Source: an uncultured Planctomycetales bacterium (lineage in GTDB: Bacteria > 4484-113 > JAFGCY01). Taken from it: a stretch of DNA of 64,000 bases. This document shows, one piece after another, positions 4,693-34,683 of the stretch (within the stretch, counting starts at the first letter, position 1; every line of letters starts with the position of its first letter). The position numbers were made by a program, and so were the translations under genes. Location of the stretch: NCBI GenBank assembly GCA_964512635.1, contig CAZEJB010000006.1:1500-65499 (forward strand), given 5' to 3'. The notes beneath the pieces are model-generated. The model was not told the DNA's origin. It did not search any database and worked only from the letters and a program-made list of their open reading frames with translations.

Positions 4693-7263
4693 TCAGGGCG
4701 CCCAGATGTAGTTGAGGCTGCCGGCGCTGTAGTCCAGGTACGCAATGCCCGGCTGTTCGTCGTAGATGTCGGCGGCAATGCTGCAGCCCGTGCCGATATC
4801 CCCGCTGAAATCCAGCAGCTCGGGGGCGTTCCAGTTTGTAGCGTCCGAGATCTTGGACCGGACCAGCTTGAGGTTATCGTTATCGGCATCGTAGTAGCAG
4901 ACCATCGGAATCCCGTTGATCAGCGCCATGCCGCTGTCCCAGCCCAGGCTGTCACCGGCATCCAGCACGAGCGGAGCGGCCCAGGTGCTGCCATTGGGAC
5001 TGGTGGCGTTAATCACTCGCAGATGCCCCAGGTAGCGATAGCTGACCGAGGGTCTTGAGTTCAGCTTGTCAATCAGAACGATATCGCCCAGGCCGATGAA
5101 CTCGTTCCCCCCGGTGTCCAGCAGGATCCGGTCGCCCCATTGCACGCCCTTGGAGTCCTCCGCGCGGGTGTAGTACAGCTGGGTGAAGCTTGATTCAGTA
5201 TAAGCGACTGCCGGGCGCCCGTTGACAATTGCCAGCGAGCAATACTGTCCGCCATCGATAGGGGCGGATTCATTAATCAGACGAGCTGTATCCGGCCAGT
5301 CCTCACCGAGCGGATCAATAGCCCTTTTGTAACGTAGCTCTCTAACGCCATTCGACACAGAGGTGTAGGCGATGGCGGCCCGTCCATCAACCTGGGCCAG
5401 GGAGCAGAACTGACCCTCATCCGCATCAACAAGCTCCGGAAGGTCAAGCGGTGCGTCCCAGCTTGATCCGTTGAAATCAAGCGCGCGGATGAACATCAGA
5501 TTGTCATCCGTGTCGTTGTAGTAGGCAATGCAGGGATTGCCGTTAATGACCTTCAGGTCGCAGTAAAGGCCGGTCCGGCCGTTGCTGTCGAGAACCTGCA
5601 CCGCGCCCCAGCTTGCGCCAAGTGGGTCGTTGGCGTGGACAAAGCACAAGTCCTTGCCCGTCGACTCGTAGTAGGCGATCGCCGGCGTGTTGTTCACCAT
5701 GGCCAGTGAGGTATAGGTTGACGGCGTCCCGCTGGATGTAACCGTCACCGGGCCTGTACCGACGTTGACCTTGCAGGATGCCTCGCTCTGGTTGTTGGCC
5801 CCGTCAGTCACCCGCACTCGAACAAATCCTCTCCAGGGCGTGCTGAAGGTATGGAAAATGTCCGGGTCAGTGCCGGAATCCAGTTCGAAGATGTTGTCAC
5901 CGTTACGGTCCCATTCGTACTTGACGATGCTGTCCCCGCTGTCGCCGCCCGCATTGCTGGCGCTGGCGTCCAGATACACCGTGAATGGTGGCGCGGCCTT
6001 GTGCGCCTCGATCGGTGTGAGCACGGCGGCCGGCGGCGCATTCGACGGATCAAATACGCTGATCGTGACCTGTGCCGTGGCCTGGTTGCCGCCGGCGTCG
6101 GTAACACGCACCTTCGTACCGAACTGGCCGGCCGAGGTGAACGTATGGCTGAAGGTCGAATCGCTGGCCGAGTCTTCATCGTATGCGCCGCGGCCGTCCC
6201 AGTCCCACTCGTAGAGGATGATCTGATCGCCATCCAGTCCACCGTTGCTGGCGCTGGCATCGAAGTTGACCGTCAGCGGGAATTCGCCGGAGTAGGTATC
6301 GGCTTCTAGCGCAGCCACTGGTGGCACGCCGCCGGTACTGATGTTCATTTCGCAGCTGTCTGAAGCTTTCTGGCCGGTACTGTCGCTGACGAAGACCGTG
6401 ATGGTCCAGGCACCGGCGCTGAAGTTGAAGCTCTGCGAGGCCTCCGGCCCGGCGAGGTCGATGTTGCCGTCGCCGTCGAGGTCCCACTCGTAGAGCACGA
6501 TGCTGTCGCCGATATCGCCGCCCGCATCGCTCTGCGAAGCATCCAGCTCGGCAAAGTACGGCGCCTCGCCGGTGACACTTTCCGGGGTCAGGATGGCATT
6601 TGGCGGAACATTTCCAGTGATGTCAAGATGCAGGCTCAGGCCTTCAACAGAGGCGAGACTGCCCTTATCGCAGAGTACAGCGCAGTACAGCTTGCTGGCC
6701 GACGAGAGGTAGTCGGTGCCATTGCCGGTCGGCAGGCTAATCGTGTCAAAGGCATCGCCAGAATCGAAAGCCCCATGCCACTCCCAGGTGCCCTTCGCAA
6801 AATTGGATAAGGCGATCCAGCACTTGCTGTCACCCGGAACATCCAGCTCCAGATCCAGTCCCAGGATGTCAAGCTCGCCGCCGGCATAAAAGCCGTAGAC
6901 CGCCCACTCGGCTTGTGAGCCGCCGTTGGGGCCAGCAGCAGTTGCGTCGATCAGGCATGTGTCACCGGACGCCACAGCGCCGCTGCTGAGCTGAGTTGCC
7001 CCGGCGCCATCCTGGACCAGATCCTGTAGAGCGCTTGCAAGGTGGAGCTGATCCAGAACCGGCAAGGCCGGAAGTTCTGCCTGGGCTGGATGGAGTTTCT
7101 GTTGTTCTGAGACATTGGCACCGTTGTCATTCTCAGCTGCCGGCACAGGGGAAGAGCTGGTTCGTTGCCCGGCGCAGCCTGACAATGTGAAGATCAACAA
7201 CAATGCAATGATCCTGGTCGCAACTATACTGGCACAGCCCGTGCGCGTTGGCTGCTGGTTCAT
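4693..7263 (-). CDS. secreted lipoprotein: N-terminal WEWHG module, multiple PKD domains, beta-propeller-like repeats
   Basis: 856 aa. Lipobox LSGC, module CWIALSNFAKGTWEWHGAF, and at least three PKD-type repeats (…FDASASNGGLDGDQIILYEWDWDG…). C-terminal repeats of LxxVNGxPxIAYY…R(A)xD. Confidence 0.8.
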   Translation of the reverse strand: MNQQPTRTGCASIVATRIIALLLIFTLSGCAGQRTSSSPVPAAENDNGANVSEQQKLHPAQAELPALPVLDQLHLASALQDLVQDGAGATQLSSGAVASGDTCLIDATAAGPNGGSQAEWAVYGFYAGGELDILGLDLELDVPGDSKCWIALSNFAKGTWEWHGAFDSGDAFDTISLPTGNGTDYLSSASKLYCAVLCDKGSLASVEGLSLHLDITGNVPPNAILTPESVTGEAPYFAELDASQSDAGGDIGDSIVLYEWDLDGDGNIDLAGPEASQSFNFSAGAWTITVFVSDSTGQKASDSCEMNISTGGVPPVAALEADTYSGEFPLTVNFDASASNGGLDGDQIILYEWDWDGRGAYDEDSASDSTFSHTFTSAGQFGTKVRVTDAGGNQATAQVTISVFDPSNAPPAAVLTPIEAHKAAPPFTVYLDASASNAGGDSGDSIVKYEWDRNGDNIFELDSGTDPDIFHTFSTPWRGFVRVRVTDGANNQSEASCKVNVGTGPVTVTSSGTPSTYTSLAMVNNTPAIAYYESTGKDLCFVHANDPLGASWGAVQVLDSNGRTGLYCDLKVINGNPCIAYYNDTDDNLMFIRALDFNGSSWDAPLDLPELVDADEGQFCSLAQVDGRAAIAYTSVSNGVRELRYKRAIDPLGEDWPDTARLINESAPIDGGQYCSLAIVNGRPAVAYTESSFTQLYYTRAEDSKGVQWGDRILLDTGGNEFIGLGDIVLIDKLNSRPSVSYRYLGHLRVINATSPNGSTWAAPLVLDAGDSLGWDSGMALINGIPMVCYYDADNDNLKLVRSKISDATNWNAPELLDFSGDIGTGCSIAADIYDEQPGIAYLDYSAGSLNYIWAP

Positions 7264-7438
7264 GGGTTCCTCCTGGACTCAGGCGGCTGGCCTGCATCCC
7301 AAAACTCTACCCATCCTGTCTTGCTTCCGATAGTACGTGATATGCAATGTATCAACAACAAACCGGTCATTTCTCAGCGCGGCCTGGATAATCCAAACGG
7401 CCCCGGATCTGACCATACCACTGCCGCTGGTACCTGAA

Positions 7439-8743
7439 ATGCGCTTCGAAGATACAGTTGCCCTGAACCGTCAAACACTGAGCAGGCGTCTAGGTCAGCT
7501 TGGCCTGACCCAGTCTGCGCTGGCGGAAGATATTGGTGTAAGCCGCCTGACAGTCGGACGCTGGCTCAGCGGCAGGGTCGAGCGCATCAGCCGCAGCAAT
7601 CTCGAACGGTTGAGTCAGCGACTTGCCTGCAGCGTTGAGGAGCTGACAGAAGTTGACACGCACGGCCGTGGTCCGCGGCAAGAAGATCGGGAGCAGGCCG
7701 CCCGGATGATTGTCAGTCGAGAGGTACTTGACCTGTTTACTGCTTCGGGCCAGATAGCAAAGTACGAACAACTGCTCCGGGCGGTGGCTCACCCCAGTAT
7801 CGACTACCAGGAGCTCCTGGACCTGTATGTCATGCTGACCTTTGTTGCCGCTAAGCGTGGCGACATGCCGAGGACGAGGCGCTATGCCCGGCTCAAGCAA
7901 AGATTTGCAGAGCAGTGCGGCGATATCGAGATGCAGTTGGAGGCCCGGATGAATCTGGCGGTCAGTGAGGCCGTTTTGGGGCGACTGCGTCCCGCGCGGG
8001 AGCAGCTGCACGGTCTGTTGGCCATGGCTGAGAGCCTTAATGCAGCTGAGGTGCTTCCTGTTGCCCTGATAAACCTCATCCTGATCAACAGAGTGCTGGC
8101 TTTTCCCCGCCGTGCAGCGATACACAGCGTTCACGTGCTTCACGTACTGGCATCGCTGCCACTCCACAGCTTTGACCTCGGAGCAGCCTACAGCAACATT
8201 TCGCGGCTGCTGTTGGAGAGTGGCAGACTTTCGGAGGCGCGTGAGTTTCTAAATGCGGCGCGACCGCTTCTGCAACAACGCTTGACACCGCACGAGCTGG
8301 CTGAACTGGAGCTGTACTCAGTAGCATTGAACTGCCTGGCTGCTAAGACTGATGTTCCGGACGCGGAAATACTGCGCCTGAACGAACTCATGCTTGTCGC
8401 GCCGCAGGTCAATGCAGGAAGCTTATTCTGGGCGGCACTGATACTGCGCCGGCAGGGGAGCTTCGCCGCCGCTGGCAGGCTGATCGAGAGTATGCTGGGC
8501 TCAGGGGCCACAGGTGAGACTGACCGGGCTTTCCTGCTCCGTGAGCAGGCCCGGCTCTTCGTAGCGATGAGGCAGCCAGAACTCGCCCTTGAGGCCATTG
8601 AGGCCTCAAACAGCGCCTTTGCGCGTCTCGGGATATCAGGCCGCATAGACGCAGACCCGGGCACGGAGGCGGACGGGGTCTTTGTACTGCCTGTGGCAAT
8701 GGTTGGGCGGTTGACCCGTCTGCTTCCGCCGGCCAGTTGCTGA
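7439..8743 (+). CDS. XRE-family HTH regulator with C-terminal TPR-like helical domain (paralog 1 of 6, most divergent)
   Basis: MRFEDTVALNRQTLSRRLGQLGLTQSALAEDIGVSRLTVGRWLSGRVERISRSNLERLSQRLAC is a Cro/C1-type helix-turn-helix. About 350 aa of paired helices follow. The ATG at 7439 aligns with the starts of paralogs 2-6. The track ORF begins at 7337. Confidence 0.7.
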   Translation: MRFEDTVALNRQTLSRRLGQLGLTQSALAEDIGVSRLTVGRWLSGRVERISRSNLERLSQRLACSVEELTEVDTHGRGPRQEDREQAARMIVSREVLDLFTASGQIAKYEQLLRAVAHPSIDYQELLDLYVMLTFVAAKRGDMPRTRRYARLKQRFAEQCGDIEMQLEARMNLAVSEAVLGRLRPAREQLHGLLAMAESLNAAEVLPVALINLILINRVLAFPRRAAIHSVHVLHVLASLPLHSFDLGAAYSNISRLLLESGRLSEAREFLNAARPLLQQRLTPHELAELELYSVALNCLAAKTDVPDAEILRLNELMLVAPQVNAGSLFWAALILRRQGSFAAAGRLIESMLGSGATGETDRAFLLREQARLFVAMRQPELALEAIEASNSAFARLGISGRIDADPGTEADGVFVLPVAMVGRLTRLLPPASC

Positions 8744-9138
8744 GAATTGTCAGTCAGCACACTTCTGCTCAGCGAACGTGTTACCCAATGTTCATTGACC
8801 CGGATCGCCTGAGCAGGTAGTTTATTCACGGCAGCAGCGCGGCCGCAAGGCAGCGCGCTGGAGCGCCGGAAGCGGTTACCGACTGAAATGTCACACATGA
8901 ACTCAGCTGCGCATGACGGGGTCGCCAGACTGGCGGCGGCGGCGCTCAGCGCGCGCGTTGCCCTGGCCGGCCATCCGGCTGCGGCTGCTGGAATGCCGAG
9001 CGCGGTGCGCACAGACGATCAGGCATCCCCAACCCCGTCAAACGGATTCCCCCCCGTTTGGCCAGTTGCGGCGGGCCGGCCCGACCGGTCCGCCGCAGTT
9101 TCATCCTCCCGGCCTGCCGACAGGTCCGGGACTGAACA

Positions 9139-9285
9139 GGTTTTCTCTCTATCACAGCGGCAAGTCAGGACCGGGGACTTCCAACCGGTTCCCCGGTCCT
9201 GGCACCTCCACTTTGCCGCGCTGAGCGATTAACGGGTTTTCTCTATTCACAGCGGCAAGCCGGGACAGGCGCAAGTCTGTCCCGG
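9139..9285 (+). repeat. tandem duplicated ~95-bp module (GGTTTTCTCT(C)TAT(T)CACAGCGGCAAG plus a perfect hairpin) in the 600-bp gap between regulator paralogs 1 and 2
   Basis: Copy 1: 9139-9164 plus an 11-bp perfect stem (9167-9177/9190-9200). Copy 2: 9234-9259 plus a 9-bp perfect stem (9260-9268/9277-9285). The stems differ in sequence but both pair perfectly. Both are followed by GCAC(C)T…CACTTT. Confidence 0.5.
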
Positions 9286-9377
9286 CAACCTGTCTTCCTG
9301 CACTTTCCTGCAAGCGTTGGTCTGCATACTTCACCAGCGGCTGGCGCCGGCAGCTTGGCTTGCGGCCCAGGCGGGCC

Positions 9378-9383
9378 TATACT
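9378..9383 (+). promoter_or_regulatory. TATACT -10-like box 7 nt upstream of the GTG start of paralog 2 (leaderless-type)
   Basis: The same hexamer lies 6-8 nt upstream of the start of paralogs 2-6. No Shine-Dalgarno sequence. Confidence 0.4.
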
Positions 9384-9390
9384 TTGCACA

Positions 9391-10692
9391 GTGCACAAAC
9401 AGGACACCGCCACGCTGAACCAGCACGCTCTGGCCGAGCGCCTGCGTGAGCTGCAGCTTAAGCAGTGGTGGGTTGCCAGGCAGATAGGTGTTACGCCCCT
9501 GACGGTCAACCGCTGGCTGACCGGCAAGGTCCGGCGTATCGGGCGCGACAATCTTGTGCGGCTGGCCGAGATACTCAAGTGCGACGAAGGGCTGCTGGTG
9601 ATCAGCGATGAGGCGGACCTGCTGGCGACCCAGGTTGAGCAGACCGAAGCCGCGCACCTGCTGACCAGCCGTGAAAGCCAGAGCCTGTTTATCGCCAGCA
9701 AGAAATATGACGTTTACGAGCAGCTGCTTAAGGCCGTCATGCACCCTAACATGAAGGCCCAGCAGCTGGCGGAGATTTATGCCCGGCTGAGTACCGCCGC
9801 GGCCGGCCAGGGAAAGCTGGAGCAGCTGCGCAGCTATGCGCGGGCCGGTCTTGAGTATGCAGTCCGAGCCGGCGATACAGATACTGAATTCCTGATCCGC
9901 AACAACCTGATTGCCTGCGAGGGCCAAAGCGGCAACCTGGCCAAGAGCATCAGCGGGCTGCGCGATCTGGCCAGCGCCGCCGAAAGCGTTGGCAACACCC
10001 GGGCCCGGGTGATCGCTTTGATGAACCTGCTGTATGCCCTGAGACTGAGCGGACGTCTTGCCGAGGCGGTACGCTTCGCCAATGAAGTCATTGCCTACCT
10101 TAACCATAGTGAGGAGCCGCGCCTGCAGGGCAACTCGCTGAGCAACTGCTCGCTGCTGGCGCTGGACCTTGGCCGCTATGACCTGGCCGCCAAGCTGCGG
10201 ATGGAGGCAGAGCGACGCGGCGGGACCGTTGCCGATACAACCCGTGATGCGATTGCGATGAGCTTTACACTGCTGTGCCGCAGTCTTGACGGCAGCCCGG
10301 TCGACCTTGAGCTTCTGCGCAGCAAGCTGCCCACCATCATGGCTCAGCCGCTGAGCGATGGCTTTGGCACCTGGTCGGTGACGATCCTGCGCCGGGCCGG
10401 GCAGCTTGACGAAGCCGCGGAACTGCTTGAGCGGGTGGCAGGGCGTGAACCGCGGCCGGCCTACGACGAGCCCTTCGTGCTTGAAGAGCGCGCGCGCCTC
10501 GAGCTGGCGCGCGGCAGGGTTGATGCGGCCCGAAAAGTGCGCGGACAGGCGAACGAGGCTCTGCGCCGGCTGGGCATGCAGGGGCGCGTCTGCGAGGATC
10601 CCGGCGCCGAGCCCGGGCAGCAGATAAAGCCGCCGGCCCGGCTGAAACTCAGCGAACCCTGGAACGACAGCTCAAGTATCTGGCGCTTGTGA
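9391..10692 (+). CDS. XRE-HTH + TPR-like regulator (paralog 2)
   Basis: GTG start, in frame with track ORF 9355. VHKQDTATLNQHALAERLRELQLKQWWVARQIGVTPLTVNRWLTGKVRRIGRDNLVRLAEILKC followed by a helical repeat domain. Conserved C-terminal …LGMQGR..EDPGAE…. Confidence 0.75.
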   Translation: MHKQDTATLNQHALAERLRELQLKQWWVARQIGVTPLTVNRWLTGKVRRIGRDNLVRLAEILKCDEGLLVISDEADLLATQVEQTEAAHLLTSRESQSLFIASKKYDVYEQLLKAVMHPNMKAQQLAEIYARLSTAAAGQGKLEQLRSYARAGLEYAVRAGDTDTEFLIRNNLIACEGQSGNLAKSISGLRDLASAAESVGNTRARVIALMNLLYALRLSGRLAEAVRFANEVIAYLNHSEEPRLQGNSLSNCSLLALDLGRYDLAAKLRMEAERRGGTVADTTRDAIAMSFTLLCRSLDGSPVDLELLRSKLPTIMAQPLSDGFGTWSVTILRRAGQLDEAAELLERVAGREPRPAYDEPFVLEERARLELARGRVDAARKVRGQANEALRRLGMQGRVCEDPGAEPGQQIKPPARLKLSEPWNDSSSIWRL

Positions 10693-10693
10693 C

Positions 10694-10699
10694 TATACT
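10694..10699 (+). promoter_or_regulatory. TATACT box 6 nt upstream of the GTG start of paralog 3
   Basis: gacTATACTctgccgGTG. Confidence 0.4.
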
Positions 10700-10705
10700 C
10701 TGCCG

Positions 10706-12046
10706 GTGCCGAAGATCGACACTGTTTCCATCAATCCACACGCCCTCGCCGAGCAGCTGCGCAGCCAGCAGCTCAAGCAGTGGTGGGTCGCGCGGCAGAT
10801 CGGCGTGACTCCGCTGACCGTAAACCGCTGGCTGACCGGCAAAGTGCGGCGCATCAGCCCGGAGAATCTAAAACGCCTCAGCGGCCTTCTGGGCTGTGAA
10901 CCGGGGGCGCTGAGCCTGCACGATGAAAGCGAGGCGCGGGCGACCCAGGTTGAGCAAAGCAGGGCATCCAGGCTGCTGGTTTCCAACGAAAGCCAGGACA
11001 TGTTTCTGCAGGCCGGCCATCTGGAGACCTATGAGCGTCTGATCAAGGCCGTTATGCACCCCAACCTGTCGCTGAGCGACCTGCTTGAAATCTATACGCT
11101 GTTGACAATGGTGGCGGGCCTGCGTGGCGACTTTGAGCGCAGCCTCAGCTATGCCCGGCTGAAGCTGGACTATGCCCTGCGCTGCGGCGACGCCGAAAAG
11201 GAGCTGGAGGCGCGGATCAACCTGGCAACAGCCCAGGGAGCGCTGGGCAACCTGATCGCTTCGCACCGCGGGCTGCTGGAGCTGTTCAGCGCGGCGGAAA
11301 GCCAGGGCGCCCAGCGCAGCATGGTGGTGGCGCTGATCAACCTGACGGCGACCTTTCACCTGCTGGGGGATGTCGGTGCTTCGCTGCGCTCCGCGATCCG
11401 TGGGCTGGAGCTGCTGCAGACGGTCAGTTCCGAGCAAGGCTCCGAGCCTGATGAGCACTGGCGGATCCAGGCCAGTTCGTATATCTACTTTGCGGCGACC
11501 AGCGTAGCGCTGGAGAGCGGCGAGTTCGACCTGGTACGGCTGCTGATTCAGGCCCAGGCCCGGGCCAGCGAGATGATGCTGACCCCGATCGAGCGGGAGA
11601 CGCTGGAGCAGGCCGACATGCTTTGCACCAGCCTGCAGGGCGGAGAGGTTGACCCGGCAGCCTTGGACAGGCAGGTCAGCAGCACGCGCGAGTTCGACCA
11701 GTTCGCCATCGGTGGCTCGATTTATCCCGCGGTGCTGCTGCGGCGCAGCGGCCGTGCGCCGGAGGCGCAGGCATTTCTTGACTCGATCCAGGACAAGCCC
11801 TGTTGCCAGCGCTATGAGTCGGCCTACATTGCTGAAGAGCGGGCCAGGATTAATGCCGCCGGAGGAAAGGCCGAAACGGCGCTGGATCTGCGCGAACAGG
11901 CGAATCAGATTCTGCAGAGTCTGGGCATGCTGCGGCGGATTCAGCCGGATCCGGCTCTGGAGTTCGGCTCGCAGTTCCGGATGCCCGCGCGGCTGAGAAC
12001 CCAGCTCCAGACGCTTGCGCGAGCCGAAATCGAGCGGCAAGGCTGA
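10706..12046 (+). CDS. XRE-HTH + TPR-like regulator (paralog 3)
   Basis: 446 aa. MPKIDTVSINPHALAEQLRSQQLKQWWVARQIGVTPLTVNRWLTGKVRRIS…. Confidence 0.8.
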   Translation: MPKIDTVSINPHALAEQLRSQQLKQWWVARQIGVTPLTVNRWLTGKVRRISPENLKRLSGLLGCEPGALSLHDESEARATQVEQSRASRLLVSNESQDMFLQAGHLETYERLIKAVMHPNLSLSDLLEIYTLLTMVAGLRGDFERSLSYARLKLDYALRCGDAEKELEARINLATAQGALGNLIASHRGLLELFSAAESQGAQRSMVVALINLTATFHLLGDVGASLRSAIRGLELLQTVSSEQGSEPDEHWRIQASSYIYFAATSVALESGEFDLVRLLIQAQARASEMMLTPIERETLEQADMLCTSLQGGEVDPAALDRQVSSTREFDQFAIGGSIYPAVLLRRSGRAPEAQAFLDSIQDKPCCQRYESAYIAEERARINAAGGKAETALDLREQANQILQSLGMLRRIQPDPALEFGSQFRMPARLRTQLQTLARAEIERQG

Positions 12047-12095
12047 GAGAGAGCGCATTCGGCTAAATTGGACCAGCAACTGTCCGAGTTATGCG

Positions 12096-12101
12096 TATAC
12101 T
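12096..12101 (+). promoter_or_regulatory. TATACT box 6 nt upstream of the GTG start of paralog 4
   Basis: gTATACTtctgccGTG. Confidence 0.4.
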
Positions 12102-12107
12102 TCTGCC

Positions 12108-13457
12108 GTGCAAAGATTGGATACCGCGACACTGAACCACGAGGCGCTGGCCGAGCTGCTGCACGGCCGCAGCCTGAAGCAGTGGTGGGTGGCGCGCCAG
12201 ATCGGGGTAGTGCCGCTGACAGTCAACCGCTGGCTGACCGGCAAGGTGCGGCGGATCAGCCTCGACAACCTGGAGCGGCTGGCCCGGCTGCTTGAGTGTT
12301 CTGCCGATACGCTGGTGCTGAAAGACAACGTGCAGGTGCGGGCAACCCAGGTGGAACAATCGCAGGCGGCGCGGATGCTGATTACGCCGGAAAGCCAGGA
12401 TATGTTCGTCAAGGCCGGCCAGCTTGAGACCTATGAGCATTTGATCAAGGCGGTAATGCACCCCAACCTCGCTCTCAACACCCTGCTTGAAGTTTATTCA
12501 GTCCTGACGCTGGTGGCAGGGCTGAAGGGCGACTTCAACCGCAGCTATGAGTATGCCAAGCTGAAGCTGGACTATGCGCTGCGCTGCGGCGACGCCGACA
12601 AGGAACTGGAAGCGCGGATCAACCATGTCAGTGCGCAGGCTGCGCTGGGCAAACTGGCTGCTTCGCATCGCGGCCTGCTGGATTTGTACAGCACCGCCGA
12701 AAGCCAGGGAGCGGTGCGCAGCATGGTCCTGACCCGGATCAATCTAATCGCCACCTACCGGCTGCTTGGCCGGATGACGGCGGCTATGCGCTGCGGACTT
12801 GAAACCCTGCGCCTGCTGGAGGCCCTGCAGGCAGAGAATGACGACCAGCACCACTGGCGACAGCTGGCGGCTTCCTATGCGCTCTTTTCCATCACAACCT
12901 CGGCCCTCGAGTGCGGTGAGGACGAACTGGTACGGCTGCTGTTGAGAATTCAGCAACCCTTCATCGAGCAATTCCACACTCCAATTGAGCGGCTGACCAT
13001 GGAAGCTACCGAGATGCTGCTTGATCTGCGCTCCGGGGGCAAGGTAGATCAGCAGCGGCTGGATGAGCTTGGCGCCGCCTTTCTGGAGGCCAATCAGTAC
13101 GGAATTGGCGGTTCTATCCTGCCCTCTCTTTGCCTGCGTGGGAGCGGACGTTTCGAGGATGCGGCTGCTTATCTGGAGGCCGTTGAGTCAAGCCCGGGAT
13201 GCGAAAAGTACGAGGCTTGCTTTGTTGCAGACGAATGGCAGCGGCTGCACCAGGCCATGGGCAACAGCCGCAAGGCCAGCAGGGCCGCAGCACGTTCCCG
13301 GGCGCTGAAGCTGGGCTTCGGCATGATCCGGGAAGCACAGGCGGACTGTGTAGAGTTTGGCCGGCAGTACACGCTGCCACCGGCCCTGGTGCGCCGGATT
13401 GCGCTGCTTGCTCCGCAGGTTATCGGGCAGGTTCTGGCGAAGCGCAGCACGGGATAA
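12108..13457 (+). CDS. XRE-HTH + TPR-like regulator (paralog 4)
   Basis: GTG start in frame with track ORF 12015. (M)QRLDTATLNHEALAELLHGRSLKQWWVARQIGVVPLTVNRWLTGKVRRISLDNLERLARLLEC…. Confidence 0.75.
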   Translation: MQRLDTATLNHEALAELLHGRSLKQWWVARQIGVVPLTVNRWLTGKVRRISLDNLERLARLLECSADTLVLKDNVQVRATQVEQSQAARMLITPESQDMFVKAGQLETYEHLIKAVMHPNLALNTLLEVYSVLTLVAGLKGDFNRSYEYAKLKLDYALRCGDADKELEARINHVSAQAALGKLAASHRGLLDLYSTAESQGAVRSMVLTRINLIATYRLLGRMTAAMRCGLETLRLLEALQAENDDQHHWRQLAASYALFSITTSALECGEDELVRLLLRIQQPFIEQFHTPIERLTMEATEMLLDLRSGGKVDQQRLDELGAAFLEANQYGIGGSILPSLCLRGSGRFEDAAAYLEAVESSPGCEKYEACFVADEWQRLHQAMGNSRKASRAAARSRALKLGFGMIREAQADCVEFGRQYTLPPALVRRIALLAPQVIGQVLAKRSTG

Positions 13458-13479
13458 GCGGCAGCACTCAGAACATTAC

Positions 13480-13485
13480 TATACT
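13480..13485 (+). promoter_or_regulatory. TATACT box 7 nt upstream of the TTG start of paralog 5
   Basis: acTATACTgattgccTTGcataag. Confidence 0.35.
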
Positions 13486-13492
13486 GATTGCC

Positions 13493-14791
13493 TTGCATAA
13501 GCAGGACACCGCCACTTTGAACCAGGAGGCACTTGCCGCGCGCATGCATAAGCTTGGCGCGAAGCAGGCCTGGCTGGCGCTGGCCATAAATGTCACCCCT
13601 CTGACCGTCAACCGCTGGATGACCGGCAAGGTCAAGCGCATCAGCCGTGACAACCTGGCCCGACTGGCTGAGGCGCTTAAATGCGATCCCGACAGTCTGG
13701 TCTTCGCCGACGAGACTGATGTGGTGGCGACCGAGCTGGAGCAGTCGGCTGCGGCCCGGCTGCTGGTCAGGCGCGAGAATCAGGAGCTGTTCATCAAGGC
13801 CGGGCAGATGGAGAGCTACGAACGTCTGATCAAGGCAGTGGTGCATCCGCGTCTGCCACTTTCAGACCTGGCGGACATCTACAGCTCGCTGACCTTTGCC
13901 GCCGCCAAGCAGGGCAAGCTGGAGGATATCCGGCGCTACGCCCGGATGAAGCTGGAGTATGCCCAGCGCATCGGCGACGGCGCCCGCGAGCTGGGGGCAC
14001 GCACGCACCTGGTTCTGGTTGACGCTGAGGAAGGCAAGCTGCTAAAGGCACGCCGCGGTCTGCTGGACCTGCTTTCTTCTGCGGAGAGTCAGGGGCTGAC
14101 CAAGGGAACGAGCATTCCAATGATCAACCTGATCCAGGTCTACCGCCTGCTGGGAGATCCGCGCCGCGCCTGCGCCTATACCATCAGGGTCTTCCGCTAT
14201 CTGAGCGGGCGGCCGGATACATCCTGGCCCCGCGCCTATGCCTGCGGGAACATGGCGCTGGTGGCGGCTGATACCGGCAGGTTCCGTCTGGCCCGCAAGC
14301 TCAAGCAGGCCGAAGCGCAGCTCAGCCGCGTGCAGTCGCCGCACGAGCGCTGTGAAGGTTCGCTGTTCAAGCTGGCAATGCTCAGCCTCGGCGGTGGCGA
14401 CGAAGGGCGGGAGAACCTTGAGGCCCTGGTCAAAACCTATCTCGGCTCCACGAAGTTTGGCGATGGCCATGCAGCCTGGCCCGCGCTGATCTGGCGACGC
14501 CGGGGCGGTTTGAAACAGGCGATGGACTACCTTGATGCCTTGGACACGCACAGCGCCTGCGGGGTTTACGAGCGGCCCTTCATCCTGCGCGAGCGAGCGC
14601 GCCTGCTGGCTGCGCTGGAGGACCACCATGCTGCAGACGAAGTGCTGCAGGAGGCGAATGAGCTGTTTCGCAATCTGGCCATGCGCCGCCGCTGCGAAGA
14701 CGATCCGGCCGCCGAGTTTGGAAGCCAGCTCAAGCTGAGCCCGCGCAGCGCGAGTGAGGTTGTAAACCTGCTGCCGGCAGTTTTGACCTGA
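13493..14791 (+). CDS. XRE-HTH + TPR-like regulator (paralog 5)
   Basis: TTG start in frame with track ORF 13199. (L)HKQDTATLNQEALAARMHKLGAKQAWLALAINVTPLTVNRWMTGKVKRISRDNLARLAEALKC… The upstream part of the track ORF overlaps paralog 4. Confidence 0.7.
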   Translation: MHKQDTATLNQEALAARMHKLGAKQAWLALAINVTPLTVNRWMTGKVKRISRDNLARLAEALKCDPDSLVFADETDVVATELEQSAAARLLVRRENQELFIKAGQMESYERLIKAVVHPRLPLSDLADIYSSLTFAAAKQGKLEDIRRYARMKLEYAQRIGDGARELGARTHLVLVDAEEGKLLKARRGLLDLLSSAESQGLTKGTSIPMINLIQVYRLLGDPRRACAYTIRVFRYLSGRPDTSWPRAYACGNMALVAADTGRFRLARKLKQAEAQLSRVQSPHERCEGSLFKLAMLSLGGGDEGRENLEALVKTYLGSTKFGDGHAAWPALIWRRRGGLKQAMDYLDALDTHSACGVYERPFILRERARLLAALEDHHAADEVLQEANELFRNLAMRRRCEDDPAAEFGSQLKLSPRSASEVVNLLPAVLT

Positions 14792-14803
14792 TACAGAGCT
14801 GTC

Positions 14804-14809
14804 TATACT
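14804..14809 (+). promoter_or_regulatory. TATACT box 8 nt upstream of the GTG start of paralog 6
   Basis: gtcTATACTgttgtcccGTG. Confidence 0.4.
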
Positions 14810-14817
14810 GTTGTCCC

Positions 14818-16146
14818 GTGCTGAAACAGAACACTGTCGCCCTAAACCAGCTAGCCCTGGCCGAGCGACTGCGCGAACAGGACCTGAAACAGTACTGGGT
14901 GGCGCGTCAGATTGGCGTGACACCTCTGACAGTCAACCGCTGGCTGACCGGTAAGGTGCGACGCATTTCCCTTGATAACCTGGAGCGACTGGCTGAACTG
15001 TTGAAGTGCACGCAGGAGAGCCTGATCCTGCACAATGAGTTGCAATCCCAGGCCACGCAGGCCGAACAGTCACAGGCCGCGCGCCTGCTGGTCAGCCGCG
15101 AAACGCAGGCCCTGTTTGTCGCCCAAAGCCAGTTTTCCAGTTATGAGAGCCTGCTGCGCGCAGTTATGCACCCCAACCTGCCGCTGCGGGATCTGCTGGC
15201 GACCTATAGCAGCCTGACCATGGCTGCCGCCGAACAGGGACGCTTCGAGCAGGCGCGCAGCTATGGCCAGGCGCGGCTGGAGCTGGCGGCGCGGGCAGGG
15301 GATTTATCCAATGAACTTGAAGCAAGGCTGAACTTGCTGACCATTGACGGCGCCGACGGTCAGATCCTGCGGGCGCGCAAGGGCATCGAAGACCTTGTGC
15401 AGGATGCCCGCTGGCTGCCTGATTTTCGCGGCTTTGGTATGGCCCTGATGAACCTGTACTACATCTATTACCTGCAGGGCGAGCTTGACCCGGCGGTCAG
15501 GATGCTGCGCCGGGCCCTGGCCCAGTGCGCGCTGCAATACTGGCTGCAGATCCGAGATTCTCTGTTCCTTCAGGGCTGCCTGATGGCGCTGGAGATCGGT
15601 GAGCTCGAACTCGCCGAGCGCTGCCGGCAACTGAGCCTGAATGTCCGCCAGCTGACCCTGTCGCGGGACCAGCGTCTGGTGCTGAACATGCTGGGGCATC
15701 TGATCGCTTCGCTGCGCGGGCATCCGCCGGATATGCCGGCCATCGATCAGCTGCTGGCTGACTTCGCGGCCGCCGAGACCCACGACGAGCTCAGCCTGCA
15801 CATTCCGGCAGCAGTGCTGCGGCAGGCCGGCAGGCTCGAGGAGGCCGGCGACTACCTGCGGCAGGTCAGCCGCAGGAAACAGGGCCGGGCCTATGACGCC
15901 CCCTTTCTGCAGGCGGAAAGCGCGCGGCTGGCCCAGGCGCGCGGGCATGCTGTGCGCGCCGCCAAGATGGCCGCCAAGTCGCGCCAGTCCTGCCTTGAAC
16001 TGTGCCTGGATGCCCGGGCAAAGGCCGACCCGCTCAAGGATTTGGGAGGCATCAAGATCAGCGCCGCGGGGCGCCGCCTGCTGTTCGAACTGGTCGCGCA
16101 GGAAGAGGATCTGCTGGCCCGCACTGGTCCCGGGCCTGCCGGCTGA
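14818..16146 (+). CDS. XRE-HTH + TPR-like regulator (paralog 6)
   Basis: 442 aa. MLKQNTVALNQLALAERLREQDLKQYWVARQIGVTPLTVNRWLTGKVRRISLDNLERLAELLKC…. Confidence 0.8.
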   Translation: MLKQNTVALNQLALAERLREQDLKQYWVARQIGVTPLTVNRWLTGKVRRISLDNLERLAELLKCTQESLILHNELQSQATQAEQSQAARLLVSRETQALFVAQSQFSSYESLLRAVMHPNLPLRDLLATYSSLTMAAAEQGRFEQARSYGQARLELAARAGDLSNELEARLNLLTIDGADGQILRARKGIEDLVQDARWLPDFRGFGMALMNLYYIYYLQGELDPAVRMLRRALAQCALQYWLQIRDSLFLQGCLMALEIGELELAERCRQLSLNVRQLTLSRDQRLVLNMLGHLIASLRGHPPDMPAIDQLLADFAAAETHDELSLHIPAAVLRQAGRLEEAGDYLRQVSRRKQGRAYDAPFLQAESARLAQARGHAVRAAKMAAKSRQSCLELCLDARAKADPLKDLGGIKISAAGRRLLFELVAQEEDLLARTGPGPAG

Positions 16147-16203: not shown

Positions 16204-16680
16204 ATGATCCTCTCCGAACGCCTCGCCCAGCTTGGCCTGAGCATGCCCAAACTGGCCATGCCGGTGGCCAACTATGTGCCGTACAAGATGGTGCTCGACA
16301 AGCAGGCCACCGGGATGCTCTATATCTCAGGCATGATCCCCATCGTTGACGGCAAGCTGGTGCACAGCGGCAAGGTCGGCGTGGACGTCTCCATCGAGCA
16401 AGCCATCGAGTGCGCGCGCATTTGCACGCTGAACGGCCTGGCCTGGGTTAATGAGGCCCTGGTCGGCGACATGAGCAGGATCTGGGAGGTCGTGAAGGTG
16501 CAGGTCTTTGTGGCCAGCAGCCTTGACTTCCACGATCAGCCGCGGGTAGCGAACGGCTGCTCCGATCTGATCGTCGAGATCTTCGGCGAGCGCGGCAAGC
16601 ATGCCCGTGCGGCCGTCGGCGTGGCGGTGCTGCCGCTTAACGCGCCGGTTGAAATCGACTTCATTATCTCTGTTCAGTAG
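16204..16680 (+). CDS. RidA/YjgF-family protein (reactive enamine/imine deaminase family)
   Basis: 158 aa. …GKVGVDVSIEQAIECARICTLNGLAWVNEALVG…VKVQVFVASSLDF…AAVGVAVLPLNAPVEIDFII. Confidence 0.8.
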   Translation: MILSERLAQLGLSMPKLAMPVANYVPYKMVLDKQATGMLYISGMIPIVDGKLVHSGKVGVDVSIEQAIECARICTLNGLAWVNEALVGDMSRIWEVVKVQVFVASSLDFHDQPRVANGCSDLIVEIFGERGKHARAAVGVAVLPLNAPVEIDFIISVQ

Positions 16681-16754: not shown

Positions 16755-18167
16755 ATGTACCGGATTTATCTCTGGGTTGCGGCACTGACTGCTGTCTGCG
16801 CCGCGCTGATGTTCAGCGCCTGCCTCAGCCAGGCCCAGCCCCACGCGCCATTTGCAATTGCCTACAACTTTGATACCAGCGGCTATCTTGAGACCTGCGG
16901 CTGCTCAGCGCATCAGCTTGGCGGCCTGGGCCGCCGCGCGACAAAGCTTGATGAGCTGCGCCAGAAGCAGCCGGTGCTGGCGCTGGAAGGCGCGCACATC
17001 GTCGCCGACAAGGGCGGCTTCCAGCTTTTCAAGGGCCAGATCATCATCGCCAGCCTCAACGCGATGGGCTACAGCGGCATGCAGATCGGCGTGCGCGAGG
17101 CCCAGCAGGGCAAGGGCGACCTGGCCAAGCTGGTGGAGGGGGCGACCTTCCCCTGCTTCAGCGCCAACCTGCTGATCGACGGCAAGCCCTGGGAGACCGG
17201 CAGCTTTGTCACCGAGATCGCCGGCAACAAGATCGGGGTGACCGGCGTGACCCAGCCGGAGATGACCCGCGACCTGGAGATGCCCGCCGAGATGGCCTTT
17301 GCCAATCCGCAGGATGCGCTTGACGGCGCGCTGGCCACGCTGGATAACCAGCAGGTCGATTGTGTGGTCGTGTTGCTTGAAGGCGGCTACGAGTGGGTCG
17401 AGCAGATCTGTGCGCAATACAGCGGGCGGGCGGATGTGTTCCTGTCCGGCAACCGCGACGAGGGCTCGGCCAAGCTGGAGTTCAAGAGCGGCCCGCCGCG
17501 GCTGAATGTCTGGGACAAGGGCCGCTTTATGGGCCTGCTGACAGTCGACCCGATCATTGGCAATGGTTCAAGCCCAACCGGCTGGAACATCGCCGGGACG
17601 ACCGTGCAGCTTAATGACCAGCTTGAGGACGCTGTGGCGATCAAGCAGATCCTGGACAACGACTACAAGCCCAAGCTGAAGGACATGTTCTTTGATGTCT
17701 TCAAGGCCGACCTGCCGCAGCTTTTCATGCCGCCGGAATACTGCGCCGACTGCCACAAGCGCGAGTACGAGACCTACATGAAGACCGGCCACTCACGGGC
17801 GATGAAGACCCTGGAGGACAAGGGCCAGCTTTATAACCCCGACTGCATGAAATGCCACCTGACCTATGACTCGCGGGAAGACAAGCTCTACAGCATGGGC
17901 TGTGTTACCTGCCACACCAACATCACCGACGACCATGTCTGGCAGGCGACCGCTGATCCCAAGACGGTGGTCAAGCCTGAGACGCCGGTCACGACCTACA
18001 CCCACGACTGGTGCTATCGCTGCCACGACCCCCTGAACAGTGTTGAGTTTGAAGGCCACTGGCCGCAGTACATTAACAAGGTCTTCCACGGCGGCGACAT
18101 GAGCGAAGCCGAGCAGGCGGCCAAGGATATGGGCATCAACATCAAGGACCCACCGCCGGCGCATTAG
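16755..18167 (+). CDS. lipoprotein with a C-terminal tetra-heme c-type cytochrome domain (4 CxxCH motifs) and an uncharacterised N-terminal domain
   Basis: Signal peptide with lipobox FSAC. Heme motifs CADCH, CMKCH, CVTCH and CYRCH in the last 150 aa. Confidence 0.7.
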   Translation: MYRIYLWVAALTAVCAALMFSACLSQAQPHAPFAIAYNFDTSGYLETCGCSAHQLGGLGRRATKLDELRQKQPVLALEGAHIVADKGGFQLFKGQIIIASLNAMGYSGMQIGVREAQQGKGDLAKLVEGATFPCFSANLLIDGKPWETGSFVTEIAGNKIGVTGVTQPEMTRDLEMPAEMAFANPQDALDGALATLDNQQVDCVVVLLEGGYEWVEQICAQYSGRADVFLSGNRDEGSAKLEFKSGPPRLNVWDKGRFMGLLTVDPIIGNGSSPTGWNIAGTTVQLNDQLEDAVAIKQILDNDYKPKLKDMFFDVFKADLPQLFMPPEYCADCHKREYETYMKTGHSRAMKTLEDKGQLYNPDCMKCHLTYDSREDKLYSMGCVTCHTNITDDHVWQATADPKTVVKPETPVTTYTHDWCYRCHDPLNSVEFEGHWPQYINKVFHGGDMSEAEQAAKDMGINIKDPPPAH

Positions 18168-18455: not shown

Positions 18456-18848
18456 TTAGGCGCTTTGTGTGGCGCGGATGGACTGCAGAGTCTGCTTCTC
18501 CTGCTCCACGTCGCGGCTGAGCAGTTCAGGGTGCGGCTTGGGTGCGTTGCCGCTGAGGATATGCGCGAGCGCTTCGCGGCCGACCAGCTTCTCAAGGCGC
18601 TCATCAAGGCGCTTGATGTCCTCATCGCGATAGCCCATGGCCAGCGCGGTCTTCATCACATCCAGCTTGTCCTTCGCCAGGCTGTGGTAAATCTCCAGCG
18701 CGCGCAGGCGCTCCTGGCGGGTCAGCTTCGGCGCGGCAACAATCACCCGCGGACGGCCGAGCTGGGCCGGCGTCCAGCCGCTGCGCGTAATGCTCTTACC
18801 GATCGAGACGGCAAGGATGATCAGCGCGATTCCGATGAAGACTTCCAT
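18456..18848 (-). CDS. small single-pass membrane protein, paralog 1 of 3 (conserved KLDV(I/M)KTAL(A/S)MGY helix)
   Basis: 130 aa. MEVFIGIALIILAVSIG… transmembrane segment, then …DKLDVMKTALAMGYRDEDIKRLDERLEKLVG. Confidence 0.6.
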   Translation of the reverse strand: MEVFIGIALIILAVSIGKSITRSGWTPAQLGRPRVIVAAPKLTRQERLRALEIYHSLAKDKLDVMKTALAMGYRDEDIKRLDERLEKLVGREALAHILSGNAPKPHPELLSRDVEQEKQTLQSIRATQSA

Positions 18849-18985: not shown

Positions 18986-19537
18986 TCAGGCTTTGCTGCG
19001 ACGGCGCTGCTCCAGTTCCTTGCTGAGCGCCTCCAGGGTTGCGCGGTCCATCAGGTCCTCGCTGCCGAGCAGCAGCTCTTCAGTTGTGTCAGGCCGCGAC
19101 GGACTGCCTGCCGGCGAAGGTACGCGGGGCACCGCCGGCGGGTCGGGTATGGTCGTCATCGAGACCTTGACCTTGACCGGCTCGAAATCGCTGCGGCCTT
19201 TGCTCTTTGACTTGCTCTTACCCAGCGGCGCGGGCTCGGCCAGCAGCTCTGACATTTTCTCAGAGCCGACCAGCATCTCCAGCCGGCGGTCGAGCTCGGC
19301 CAGCTCGTCGGTCTTATAGCCCATCGAGATGGCAGTCTTGATAATGTCCAGCTTCTCCATCGCGATCTTCTCGTAGAGGCGGCGCGATTCAGCGCGCTCG
19401 ATGGTGTCGCGCTTCAGCTTCGCCCGGCTGGTCAAAAAGCTGGCGGTGATCGCCACGATGGGAATAAACAGCGCGGTCAGGGGAATAAAGACCCAGACTG
19501 TCTCCGGCTGCAGTATCTGCTGAAAGATCAAAGCCAA
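18986..19537 (-). CDS. small single-pass membrane protein, paralog 2 of 3
   Basis: 183 aa. Transmembrane segment, then …EKLDIIKTAISMGYKTDELAELDRRLEMLVG. Low-complexity S/P/K tail. Confidence 0.6.
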   Translation of the reverse strand: MALIFQQILQPETVWVFIPLTALFIPIVAITASFLTSRAKLKRDTIERAESRRLYEKIAMEKLDIIKTAISMGYKTDELAELDRRLEMLVGSEKMSELLAEPAPLGKSKSKSKGRSDFEPVKVKVSMTTIPDPPAVPRVPSPAGSPSRPDTTEELLLGSEDLMDRATLEALSKELEQRRRSKA

Positions 19538-34561: not shown

Positions 34562-34683
34562 GGGGGCCTCCTGCGCCTTAACCCGGCAGCGCGCCAATTA
34601 TGACTGTCGGCCGCTTGTGCTGGTTCAATCAGACCTGCCGCCGCGGGAAGGAGACCAATGAGACAGCCCTGATCAGTGAGATG

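Follow-up and report, generated by a model that had tools for sequence, protein, structure and literature searches.

To our knowledge, one-component receptors that combine a helix-turn-helix (HTH) with TPRs have been studied almost only in Bacillota and their phages, as RRNPPA peptide sensors. The RRNPP(A) signature comprises five criteria, i.e., a receptor of 250-500 aa, TPRs, an adjacent propeptide, secretion, and subfamily homology (PMC10075063). The propeptide gene encodes 10-100 aa, is located -60 to 400 bp from the receptor gene, and its product is secreted by Sec or PptAB (PMC10075063). Here we describe an array of six HTH-TPR genes in a window of 64 kb (the whole stretch of DNA analyzed) from an uncultured lineage. 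The family is known only from metagenomes, with 476 matches to the family profile at E ≤ 1e-10, 78 cluster representatives at E ≤ 1e-30, and about 100 full-length proteins among the matches listed.

Open reading frame calls confirmed six consecutive genes on the plus strand (7439-16146) at the start positions of the first-pass annotation. The array comprises copy 1 (7439-8743; 434 aa), copy 2 (9391-10692; 433 aa; GTG start), copy 3 (10706-12046; 446 aa; GTG), copy 4 (12108-13457; 449 aa; GTG), copy 5 (13493-14791; 432 aa; TTG), and copy 6 (14818-16146; 442 aa; GTG). The TTG start of copy 5 is supported by the conserved N-terminus HKQDTATLN, which lies upstream of the ATG chosen by the gene caller. 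Protein lengths of 432-449 aa replace the 440-470 aa estimated before and fall within the size range of RRNPP(A) receptors. The spacers between copies 2 to 6 measure 13, 61, 35, and 26 bp, as annotated (13-61 bp), and copies 1 and 2 are separated by a gap of 647 bp. Paralogues are 31-54% identical; copies 3 and 4 are sisters, and copy 1 is the most divergent. The array is no assembly artefact: its genes are also found on the independent Logan assemblies SRR14271334 and SRR14271333, and the metagenome-assembled genome (MAG) SJ870 contains it in full.

All six proteins share the architecture initially proposed. A Cro/C1-type HTH and a linker lead into approximately nine pairs of TPR-like helices, and the C-terminal tail is conserved. 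HTH_3 and/or HTH_26 matched above the Pfam gathering cut-offs in every copy (residues ~14-70), and this domain forms five helices in AF2 models, in agreement with an XRE (Cro/C1) domain. Single TPR matches in Pfam were below threshold in all six proteins. The TPR-like nature of the following region was nevertheless borne out by the all-alpha AF2 models with about nine helix pairs (pLDDT 84 and 88; 83.8 for copy 1) and by a family profile, which matched LGN/Pins, kinesin light chain, consensus TPR, and the AfsR TPR domain in the PDB (E 1e-12 to 1e-79). The C-terminal block LGMxxRxxxDPxxEFGxQ was found as described and is conserved across the wider family; residues ~401-430 are predicted to be non-helical (pLDDT 82-94), and this tail may itself sit in the groove of the TPRs, either of its own chain (in cis) or of another (in trans). 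In structure comparisons, domain III of MalT was the closest fold, followed by Rap, AimR, and NprR. Such a fold could accommodate a small molecule in the groove, or else an extended peptide. HMM searches, as advised by the first-pass annotation, placed the proteins neither in RNPP nor in any other characterized family.

These folds bear on the question of whether the proteins act as protein-binding adaptors, with TPRs that sequester or deliver partners such as sigma factors and response regulators, or with paralogues that titrate one another, the HTH serving as a DNA tether. The nearest folds include Rap proteins, TPRs of the LGN and kinesin-light-chain type bind proteins, and the conserved tail could mediate contacts between paralogues. 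We nonetheless consider adaptors unlikely, given that across genomes no conserved partner gene adjoins, save lipoprotein genes and a divergent gene of ~250 aa, and that the strongly conserved HTH and a co-occurring DNA box (see below) favor direct transcriptional control.

The resemblance to RNPP-type regulators noted before holds for architecture and fold, including the similarity to solved RRNPPA receptors, but not for family membership. The 60 best PDB profile hits included no RNPP chain, and the NCBIfam AimR model matched with an E-value of 0.088 (11.8 bits; cut-off 70), restricted to the HTH. As already stated in the annotation, no small exported-peptide genes were seen between the copies: no ORF of 10-100 aa in the spacers (±60 nt) or the 647-bp gap is conserved between the window and SJ870, where the spacers before copies 3, 5, and 6 lack any ORF of 10 aa or more. 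By a hydrophobicity proxy, no conserved small ORF with a signal-like segment was detected in spacers or gap. Two minus-strand ORFs of 69-70 aa starting with MIERK were rejected as propeptides, as they have only conserved DNA at their start in common. True quorum sensing of the RRNPP(A) type, in which the paralogues would be cytoplasmic receptors for secreted and re-imported oligopeptides, would rely on propeptides encoded elsewhere, in overlapping frames, or derived from other proteins. With MalT domain III as the better structural match, and a host lineage that carries MacB/HlyD-type efflux genes and no Bacillota label, and whose nearest urocanase relatives bear no label beyond "bacterium", we hold this explanation to be improbable.

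The phylogeny and synteny check proposed earlier revealed six 1:1 orthologues in SJ870 in the same order, each pair with 100% bootstrap support. Across all six pairs, dN/dS was 0.13-0.44, indicating purifying selection, values that are approximate as dS is near saturation (~1): copy 1 (43% identical, 0.44), copy 3 (66%, 0.29), copy 4 (77%, 0.13), copy 5 (72%, 0.23), and copy 6 (57%, 0.38). The copies evolve fast compared to neighboring genes, with KatG at a dN/dS of 0.08. SJ870 additionally carries a seventh paralogue. More distant relatives have a single copy (L006, L007, L010, L011, L012, L014, and the P0015 contig), in L007 with the same synteny as the array, and the array therefore represents an old local expansion. 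Copy 6, which is adjacent to a RidA gene, clusters with the single-copy genes P0013, P0279, and P0019 (89% bootstrap), P0013 being the syntenic gene of L007, and is probably the ancestral copy. The duplications happened before the two known genomes diverged, and selection has maintained each copy from then on. Tandem duplication easily yields redundant copies, and the relaxed dN/dS of copies 1 and 6 relative to KatG would suit redundant or decaying duplicates without separate functions. However, all six genes are intact in two genomes about one synonymous substitution per site apart, with 1:1 order, start contexts, and full length retained and dN/dS below 0.45 for each copy, which makes redundancy very unlikely.

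The locus is syntenic in three genomes and surrounded by RidA, cytochrome, KatG, and lipoprotein genes. Upstream of copy 1 lies a divergent gene on the minus strand (4693-7263) encoding an 856-aa PKD-domain lipoprotein, a paralogue of the 919-aa lipoprotein encoded at 1876-4635 and a recurrent neighbor of family members: L001, L007, and the P0015 contig each have PKD proteins beside the regulator. Conserved downstream partners are a RidA/YjgF gene (16204-16680, plus strand) and a multihaem cytochrome c gene (16755-18167, plus strand); in L007, GNAT, RidA, and cytochrome genes are tightly clustered with the lone regulator, with overlaps between genes. Of the two explanations for the six-fold amplification offered by the first-pass annotation, a multi-input sensory array agrees with the model favored below, and a toxin/antitoxin- or defence-like system is largely refuted. 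Antitoxins and phage repressors often carry XRE heads. In line with a mobile element, a toxin-antitoxin module, or an anti-phage defence system whose TPRs act as sensors in the manner of Avs/STAND, the HTH gave weak matches to DicA, RstR, and HigA, marginal PADLOC matches were obtained for a "TPR" component and RmrA (E 1e-5 to 1e-2), and the copies evolve faster than their neighbors. All NCBIfam and PADLOC matches are, however, far under the cut-offs and confined to generic HTH or TPR segments; PADLOC-DB 2.0 as a whole returned only marginal generic TPR, RmrA-HTH, and C-protein-HTH matches (E 1e-5 to 0.03) and no partner genes. No NTPase, nuclease, toxin, integrase, or transposase was found nearby, and the conserved synteny is accompanied by no GC anomaly at the locus, so that we give a mobile or defence origin almost no credence.

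Copies 2 to 6 share 67% identity in the HTH, including an identical recognition helix with TPLTVNRWLTGK invariant, whereas the middle of the TPR domain has diverged to 24%. Synonymous differences (pS) in the HTH are 0.49-0.67 and saturated as in the rest of the gene; this excludes gene conversion and attributes HTH conservation to selection at the protein level. The recognition helix of copy 1 differs (GVSRLTVGRWLSGR).

On the transcriptional side, each start codon of copies 2 to 6 is preceded, at a distance of 6-8 nt, by a -10 element. These elements read CTATACT before copies 2 (9377-9383, 7 nt before the GTG), 3 (10693-10699), 5 (13479-13485), and 6 (14803-14809), and TATACT before copy 4 (12096-12101), all on the plus strand; copy 1 is not of this leaderless type. 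CTATACT occurs seven times in the window (1.16 expected), four of these before paralogues, and also precedes all SJ870 orthologues and relatives in L005, L007, L011, and L014. Judging from this spacing, copies 2 to 6 are probably each transcribed alone as a leaderless mRNA. In model organisms, leaderless mRNAs initiate poorly at GTG and TTG, and CTATACT could therefore have another role. A generic promoter scan of the spacers recovered only the copy-2 promoter. When spacers before copies 3 to 6 were anchored on TATACT, neither a common motif nor a consistent -35 was found, and a shared operator there was discarded.

In seven genomes, promoters beside family genes carry a 14-nt box, GTGWTAnCCAATGT, directly against their -35. 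Three boxes are located in the window, all on the plus strand and in intergenic DNA ahead of family or lipoprotein genes. The first is in the 647-bp gap (8778-8823) and comprises the box GTGTTACCCAATGT (8778-8791), the -35 TTGACC (8795-8800), a 17-nt spacer, and the -10 TAGTTT (8818-8823); it points to a structured region and copies 2 to 6, is strongly conserved compared to L001, and its geometry is repeated in L014, L005, L007, L006, and L010. The second (7337-7392) comprises GTGATATGCAATGT at 7337-7350, which precedes copy 1 by 102 nt and is 74 nt away from the start of the divergent PKD-lipoprotein gene, and a conserved TG-GATAAT -10-like element (7385-7392); an orthologous box exists in L001 at 2577. 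The third (1765-1810) precedes the 919-aa lipoprotein gene, with ATGTTACCCAATGA at 1765-1778, TTGTGA at 1782-1787, and TAGGCT at 1805-1810. At the same relative place, the L007 orthologue of this gene has GTGATACCCAATGA-3-TTTACT-17-TAGCCT.

Exact matches to the box pattern number two in 64 kb against 0.04 expected. A position weight matrix (PWM) built only from other genomes gave exactly three hits in the window (21.9 bits at 8778, 19.7 at 1765, and 18.2 at 7337), with 11.8 bits for the next best site and 17.4 bits for the 95th percentile of shuffle maxima; no further site of at least 14 bits was present in ~230 kb of loci. The spacing box-3-(-35)-17-(-10) is fixed in 9 of 11 sites. From this co-occurrence, GTGWTAnCCAATGT is probably the binding site of the family proteins. 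The box could also be the site of another factor or an extension of the promoter. It lacks an obvious palindrome, with a partial dyad CAATG-N2-CATTG over the -35 in some sites only, and a non-palindromic site is unusual for XRE dimers. Furthermore, the box is absent near the family gene of L011 and from the short spacers before copies 3 to 6.

Downstream of the gap promoter, the conserved non-coding region 9030-9310 (plus strand) forms a series of GC-rich hairpins. Its minimum free energy is -143 kcal/mol, with z-scores of -8.3 on the plus and -4.8 on the minus strand, and six pairs are preserved through double changes in comparison to L001. No conserved ORF was found in this region, and no Rfam family matched the gap at the gathering threshold (E-values up to 10 gave chance-level matches only). 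TCACAGCGGCAAG is present as a direct repeat (9152-9164 and 9247-9259), with a hairpin behind each unit. We rejected it as a repeat or operator used genome-wide, as the only two exact copies are both in the gap; one similar site precedes the seventh paralogue of SJ870. We also rejected a sigma-54 promoter in the gap, where TGGCAC is conserved but, by eye in the alignment, the -12 element is mis-spaced and missing in SJ870.

Taken together, we slightly favor a model in which the six genes encode ligand-gated one-component transcription factors of an uncharacterized family that converge on shared box promoters. Each protein would couple an XRE HTH head to a closed TPR superhelix as sensor, and the array would have arisen by serial tandem duplication of one ancestral gene beside large PKD lipoprotein genes and the RidA-multihaem cytochrome pair. 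Copies 2 to 6 would be transcribed singly and leaderless from CTATACT, and the proteins would bind the 14-nt box next to the -35 hexamer, i.e., before the 919-aa lipoprotein gene, in the interval that separates the divergent PKD lipoprotein gene from copy 1, and within the 647-bp gap, from where transcription would proceed into the structured RNA and then towards copies 2 to 6. As copies 2 to 6 combine an invariant recognition helix with strongly diverged sensors, their signals most likely converge on the same promoters; five or six different intracellular signals would meet there via competition or mixed oligomers. Copy 1, with its other recognition helix, may read a variant site. A bolder version, to which we assign only a slim chance, would be RNPP-like signaling outside Gram-positives, with the C-terminal tail of the same or a neighboring paralogue, or peptides made elsewhere, as groove ligand. 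The six paralogues would then constitute a combinatorial tail-in-groove bank of hetero-oligomeric sensors on one operator box, with the structured RNA of the box promoter adding a feedback layer.

New here are the 14-nt box, the CTATACT elements before copies 2 to 6, and the conserved structured RNA region. The locus thereby offers a candidate operator and a promoter geometry that can be tested, as well as a clear group of conserved putative leaderless promoters with GTG/TTG starts in an uncultured lineage. A six-member paralogue series with one DNA-reading head and diversifying sensors offers a system for studying specificity change in TPRs and promoter sharing. Established concepts are unaffected unless the ligand turns out to be unusual.

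Compared to known systems, the family shares HTH-TPR architecture and fold with the RRNPP(A) receptors PlcR, NprR, AimR, PrgX, and Rgg; Rap lacks the HTH. It differs from them by the missing adjacent propeptide gene and sequence-profile relationship, by its conserved C-terminal tail motif, by canonical TPRs of the TPR_12/LGN type where those of RNPP are degenerate, and by a host that, unlike Bacillota, is probably diderm. STAND regulators (MalT, AfsR, and the LAL family) contain an NB-ARC/NACHT/AAA NTPase module, which is lacking here: Pfam and NCBIfam scans detected no NTPase domain, and the stretch between the HTH (1-70) and the TPR region (from ~120) is too short to hold one. Moreover, their DNA-binding domain is a C-terminal LuxR or a SARP domain, in contrast to the N-terminal XRE HTH of the present proteins, which are half as large or less. 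By sequence profile, the closest TPRs are those of LGN/Pins and kinesin light chain (E 1e-31 to 1e-35), superhelical repeats that bind extended peptides in their inner groove. These are eukaryotic scaffolds without a DNA-binding domain; the likeness is one of repeat type and not of orthology. The HTH-TPR receptor architecture occurs here in a metagenome-only family without adjacent propeptide genes.

Six consecutive ORFs on the forward strand at 7439-8743, 9391-10692, 10706-12046, 12108-13457, 13493-14791 and 14818-16146 (copies 1 to 6) encode products that share 31-54% identity pair by pair in full-length alignment. The start positions are those reported by the first-pass annotation; its length range of 440-470 aa was slightly high, as the products measure 432-449 aa. 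Spacers along the array are 647, 13, 61, 35 and 26 bp, in agreement with the 13-61 bp noted between copies 2 and 6. A Cro/C1-type HTH (residues ~14-70) was detected in all six copies, with HTH_3 and/or HTH_26 above the Pfam cut-offs. TPR matches of individual copies fell below the Pfam threshold in single-sequence scans; a profile of the wider family matched LGN/Pins, kinesin light chain, consensus TPR proteins and the AfsR TPR domain (E 1e-12 to 1e-79). AlphaFold models of copy 1 (pLDDT 83.8) and copy 2 (pLDDT 88, pTM 0.79) comprise a five-helix head, a linker of two to three helices and approximately nine helix pairs, which bears out the HTH-TPR architecture read from the sequence. The C-terminal motif LGMxxRxxxDPxxEFGxQ, likewise already recognized, is conserved, and since it is predicted as a non-helical segment at pLDDT 82-94, the models suggest that it packs against the TPR body, where it could possibly be a built-in groove ligand. 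A near-invariant cysteine closes the HTH domain family-wide (motif LxC; C64 in copy 2, ~9580-9582), and family neighbourhoods include genes for KatG, Fur, cytochromes and Rrf2-Rieske-cytochrome b. A redox role of this cysteine is conceivable.

The same genes were recovered from independent Logan assemblies, and the complete six-gene array recurs in a second MAG, SJ870 (GCA_020849855.1), with order and synteny kept: an opposite-strand PKD lipoprotein gene, the six regulators, RidA and a multihaem cytochrome. The nearest SJ870 match of each copy is the one at the same position (43, 76, 66, 77, 72 and 57% identity for copies 1 to 6), and all six positional pairs have 100% bootstrap support. Between the window and SJ870, dN/dS is 0.13-0.44 for the regulators; KatG has 0.08, RidA and the cytochrome have 0.20-0.24, and urocanase on the same contigs is 96% identical. 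The regulators thus evolve fast yet under purifying selection. SJ870 additionally holds a seventh paralogue, unlinked to the array (locus L005).

In an exhaustive profile search, 78 cluster representatives matched at E ≤ 1e-30, and a looser cut-off of E ≤ 1e-10 gave 476; approximately 100 of the best 150 listed matches were full-length (400-440 aa). All matches are metagenomic and carry generic names only. Relatives with readable context are single-copy: five loci (L006, L010, L011, L012 and L014) hold singletons, another contig has the regulator divergent from a PKD protein gene, and L007 has a lone regulator in a cluster of overlapping genes (PKD protein, regulator, GNAT, RidA, multihaem cytochrome). 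Copy 6 clusters with single-copy genes (89% bootstrap). The sister pair of copies 3 and 4 has 65% support, and its clade with the related metagenomic protein P0004 has 100%. Because relatives are single-copy, L007 shares the synteny and copy 6 groups with singletons, we infer that the array is old and arose where it stands, by expansion from an ancestor next to RidA. A third genome with an array is suggested by two short JGI contigs on which family genes have neighbours in tandem.

Conservation is unevenly distributed along the proteins. Copies 2-6 share 67% identity in the HTH, where the recognition helix (TPLTVNRWLTGK) is invariant, compared to only 24% in the mid-TPR domain. Gene conversion could have homogenized the heads; synonymous sites in the HTH are, however, saturated as much as elsewhere, which rules this out and argues for selection. 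The most economical reading of these sequences is a bank of sensors that would share one DNA specificity and respond to different inputs. The recognition helix of copy 1 differs, and this copy may read a variant site.

A candidate for the shared site lies in the 647-bp gap between copies 1 and 2, where alignment to SJ870 revealed a near-invariant block, GTGTTACCCAATGT-tca-TTGACC-17 nt-TAGTTT (8778-8823). A related box is found at 7337-7350, 102 nt before copy 1, and the degenerate 14-nt pattern (consensus GTGWTAnCCAATGT) matches twice in 64 kb (0.04 expected). Boxes also occur beside family genes of other loci: at -101 in L014 on the strand of the family gene, at -176 from the family gene in L005, upstream of the PKD-regulator operon in L007, and on the opposite strand in L006, L010 and L012, towards a conserved divergent gene of ~250 aa. 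Scored with a weight matrix from non-window sites only, the window has three high hits and no more, at 8778 (21.9 bits), 1765 (19.7) and 7337 (18.2); the next-best score was 11.8 bits, the 95th percentile of shuffle maxima was 17.4, and no further site of ≥14 bits was found in ~230 kb of loci. The 1765 box precedes a 919-aa lipoprotein gene whose L007 orthologue has a box at the same relative place. Nine of 11 sites have the geometry box, 3 nt, -35, 17 nt, -10. Purely by association, the box is the best candidate operator of the family, and through box promoters the sensor bank would act on the lipoprotein genes as well as on the array itself. As the box borders on the -35 and may share part of it, either activation or occlusion by a bound regulator is possible. 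In L005, the seventh paralogue is preceded at a distance of ~200 nt by a short tandem repeat (GCCATTA-like units, 9766-9810), which lies just before the box.

The genes at 1876-4635 (+) and 4693-7263 (-) are paralogues whose large, lipoprotein-like products share 24% identity over 766 aa; the second product has PKD domains. The L007 PKD protein is the orthologue of the first (29% over 902 aa), and in other genomes, too, homologues lie next to regulators of the family. In the distant branch of the family, the gene divergent from the regulator encodes in every case a conserved protein of ~240-320 aa without Pfam family, and the box promoter aims at that gene (L006 8962-9921(-), L010 4956-5786(-), L012 9222-9935(-); 44-46% identity among the three). 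Two small proteins encoded side by side (18456-18848(-) and 18986-19537(-)) are paralogues at 37% identity without a Pfam family; both have a hydrophobic segment at the N-terminus, and both are conserved in SJ870. The window also encodes a bacterial serpin (33242-34597(-)) and a hybrid histidine kinase of 1442 aa whose domains include CHASE, PAS, receiver and Hpt (55947-60275(-)), neither of them related to the array.

Each of copies 2-6 has (C/G)TATACT 6-8 nt ahead of its GTG, TTG or ATG start, with no Shine-Dalgarno sequence before any of them. The SJ870 orthologues of copies 2-6 all show this start context, as do the seventh paralogue and the relatives from three loci (L007, L011 and L014). 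CTATACT occurs seven times in the window (1.2 expected), four times before paralogues. Each paralogue thus probably has its own promoter. At the same start distance, -10-like hexamers also precede ridA, urocanase and several hypothetical genes. Many unrelated genes (16204, 18848(-), 20094(-), 32794(-), 33209(-) and 45495) lack a Shine-Dalgarno sequence and have TACAAT, TATAAT, TAGAAT, TAAAAT or TACACT 6-7 nt ahead of the start codon. Given these hexamers, leaderless mRNAs seem common in the host lineage.

Downstream of the gap promoter, 9030-9310 is predicted to form a chain of GC-rich hairpins (MFE -143 kcal/mol; z -8.3 on the forward and -4.8 on the reverse strand), with six base pairs preserved by double changes in SJ870. 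Two TCACAGCGGCAAG repeats lie in the region, with a hairpin after each of them; the region has neither an ORF conserved in SJ870 nor an Rfam match. After the first repeat-hairpin, TGGCACCTCC (9197-9206) is kept in SJ870; its CACCTCC is similar to the anti-Shine-Dalgarno sequence at the 3' end of 16S rRNA. A one-mismatch repeat copy within the ridA coding sequence (GCACAGCGGCAAG, 16362-16374) is probably due to chance.

Regarding known systems, the observation of the array is confirmed and its first interpretation partly supported. The suggested defence or toxin-antitoxin role found no backing: PADLOC and NCBIfam gave marginal generic matches only, and no mobile or effector genes were found in the neighbourhood. 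The proposed likeness to RNPP regulators holds for architecture and fold and fails as membership. RRNPP systems are defined by a five-criterion signature (PMC10075063); copies 1-6 agree with it in receptor size and TPRs, but the array lacks an adjacent propeptide, and NCBIfam and PDB profile searches found no sequence relationship to RNPP. As the first-pass annotation had noted, no small exported-peptide genes are visible between the copies: no ORF of ≥10 aa is conserved with SJ870 in any spacer or the gap, and three SJ870 spacers hold no such ORF whatsoever. Foldseek agrees on MalT DIII as the sensor resemblance; copies 1-6 have no NTPase domain and are therefore not STAND/MalT members. They belong to a known kind, the XRE-HTH/TPR one-component sensor, within which they stand out by their conserved array of six, a candidate operator, putative leaderless promoters and an associated structured RNA.
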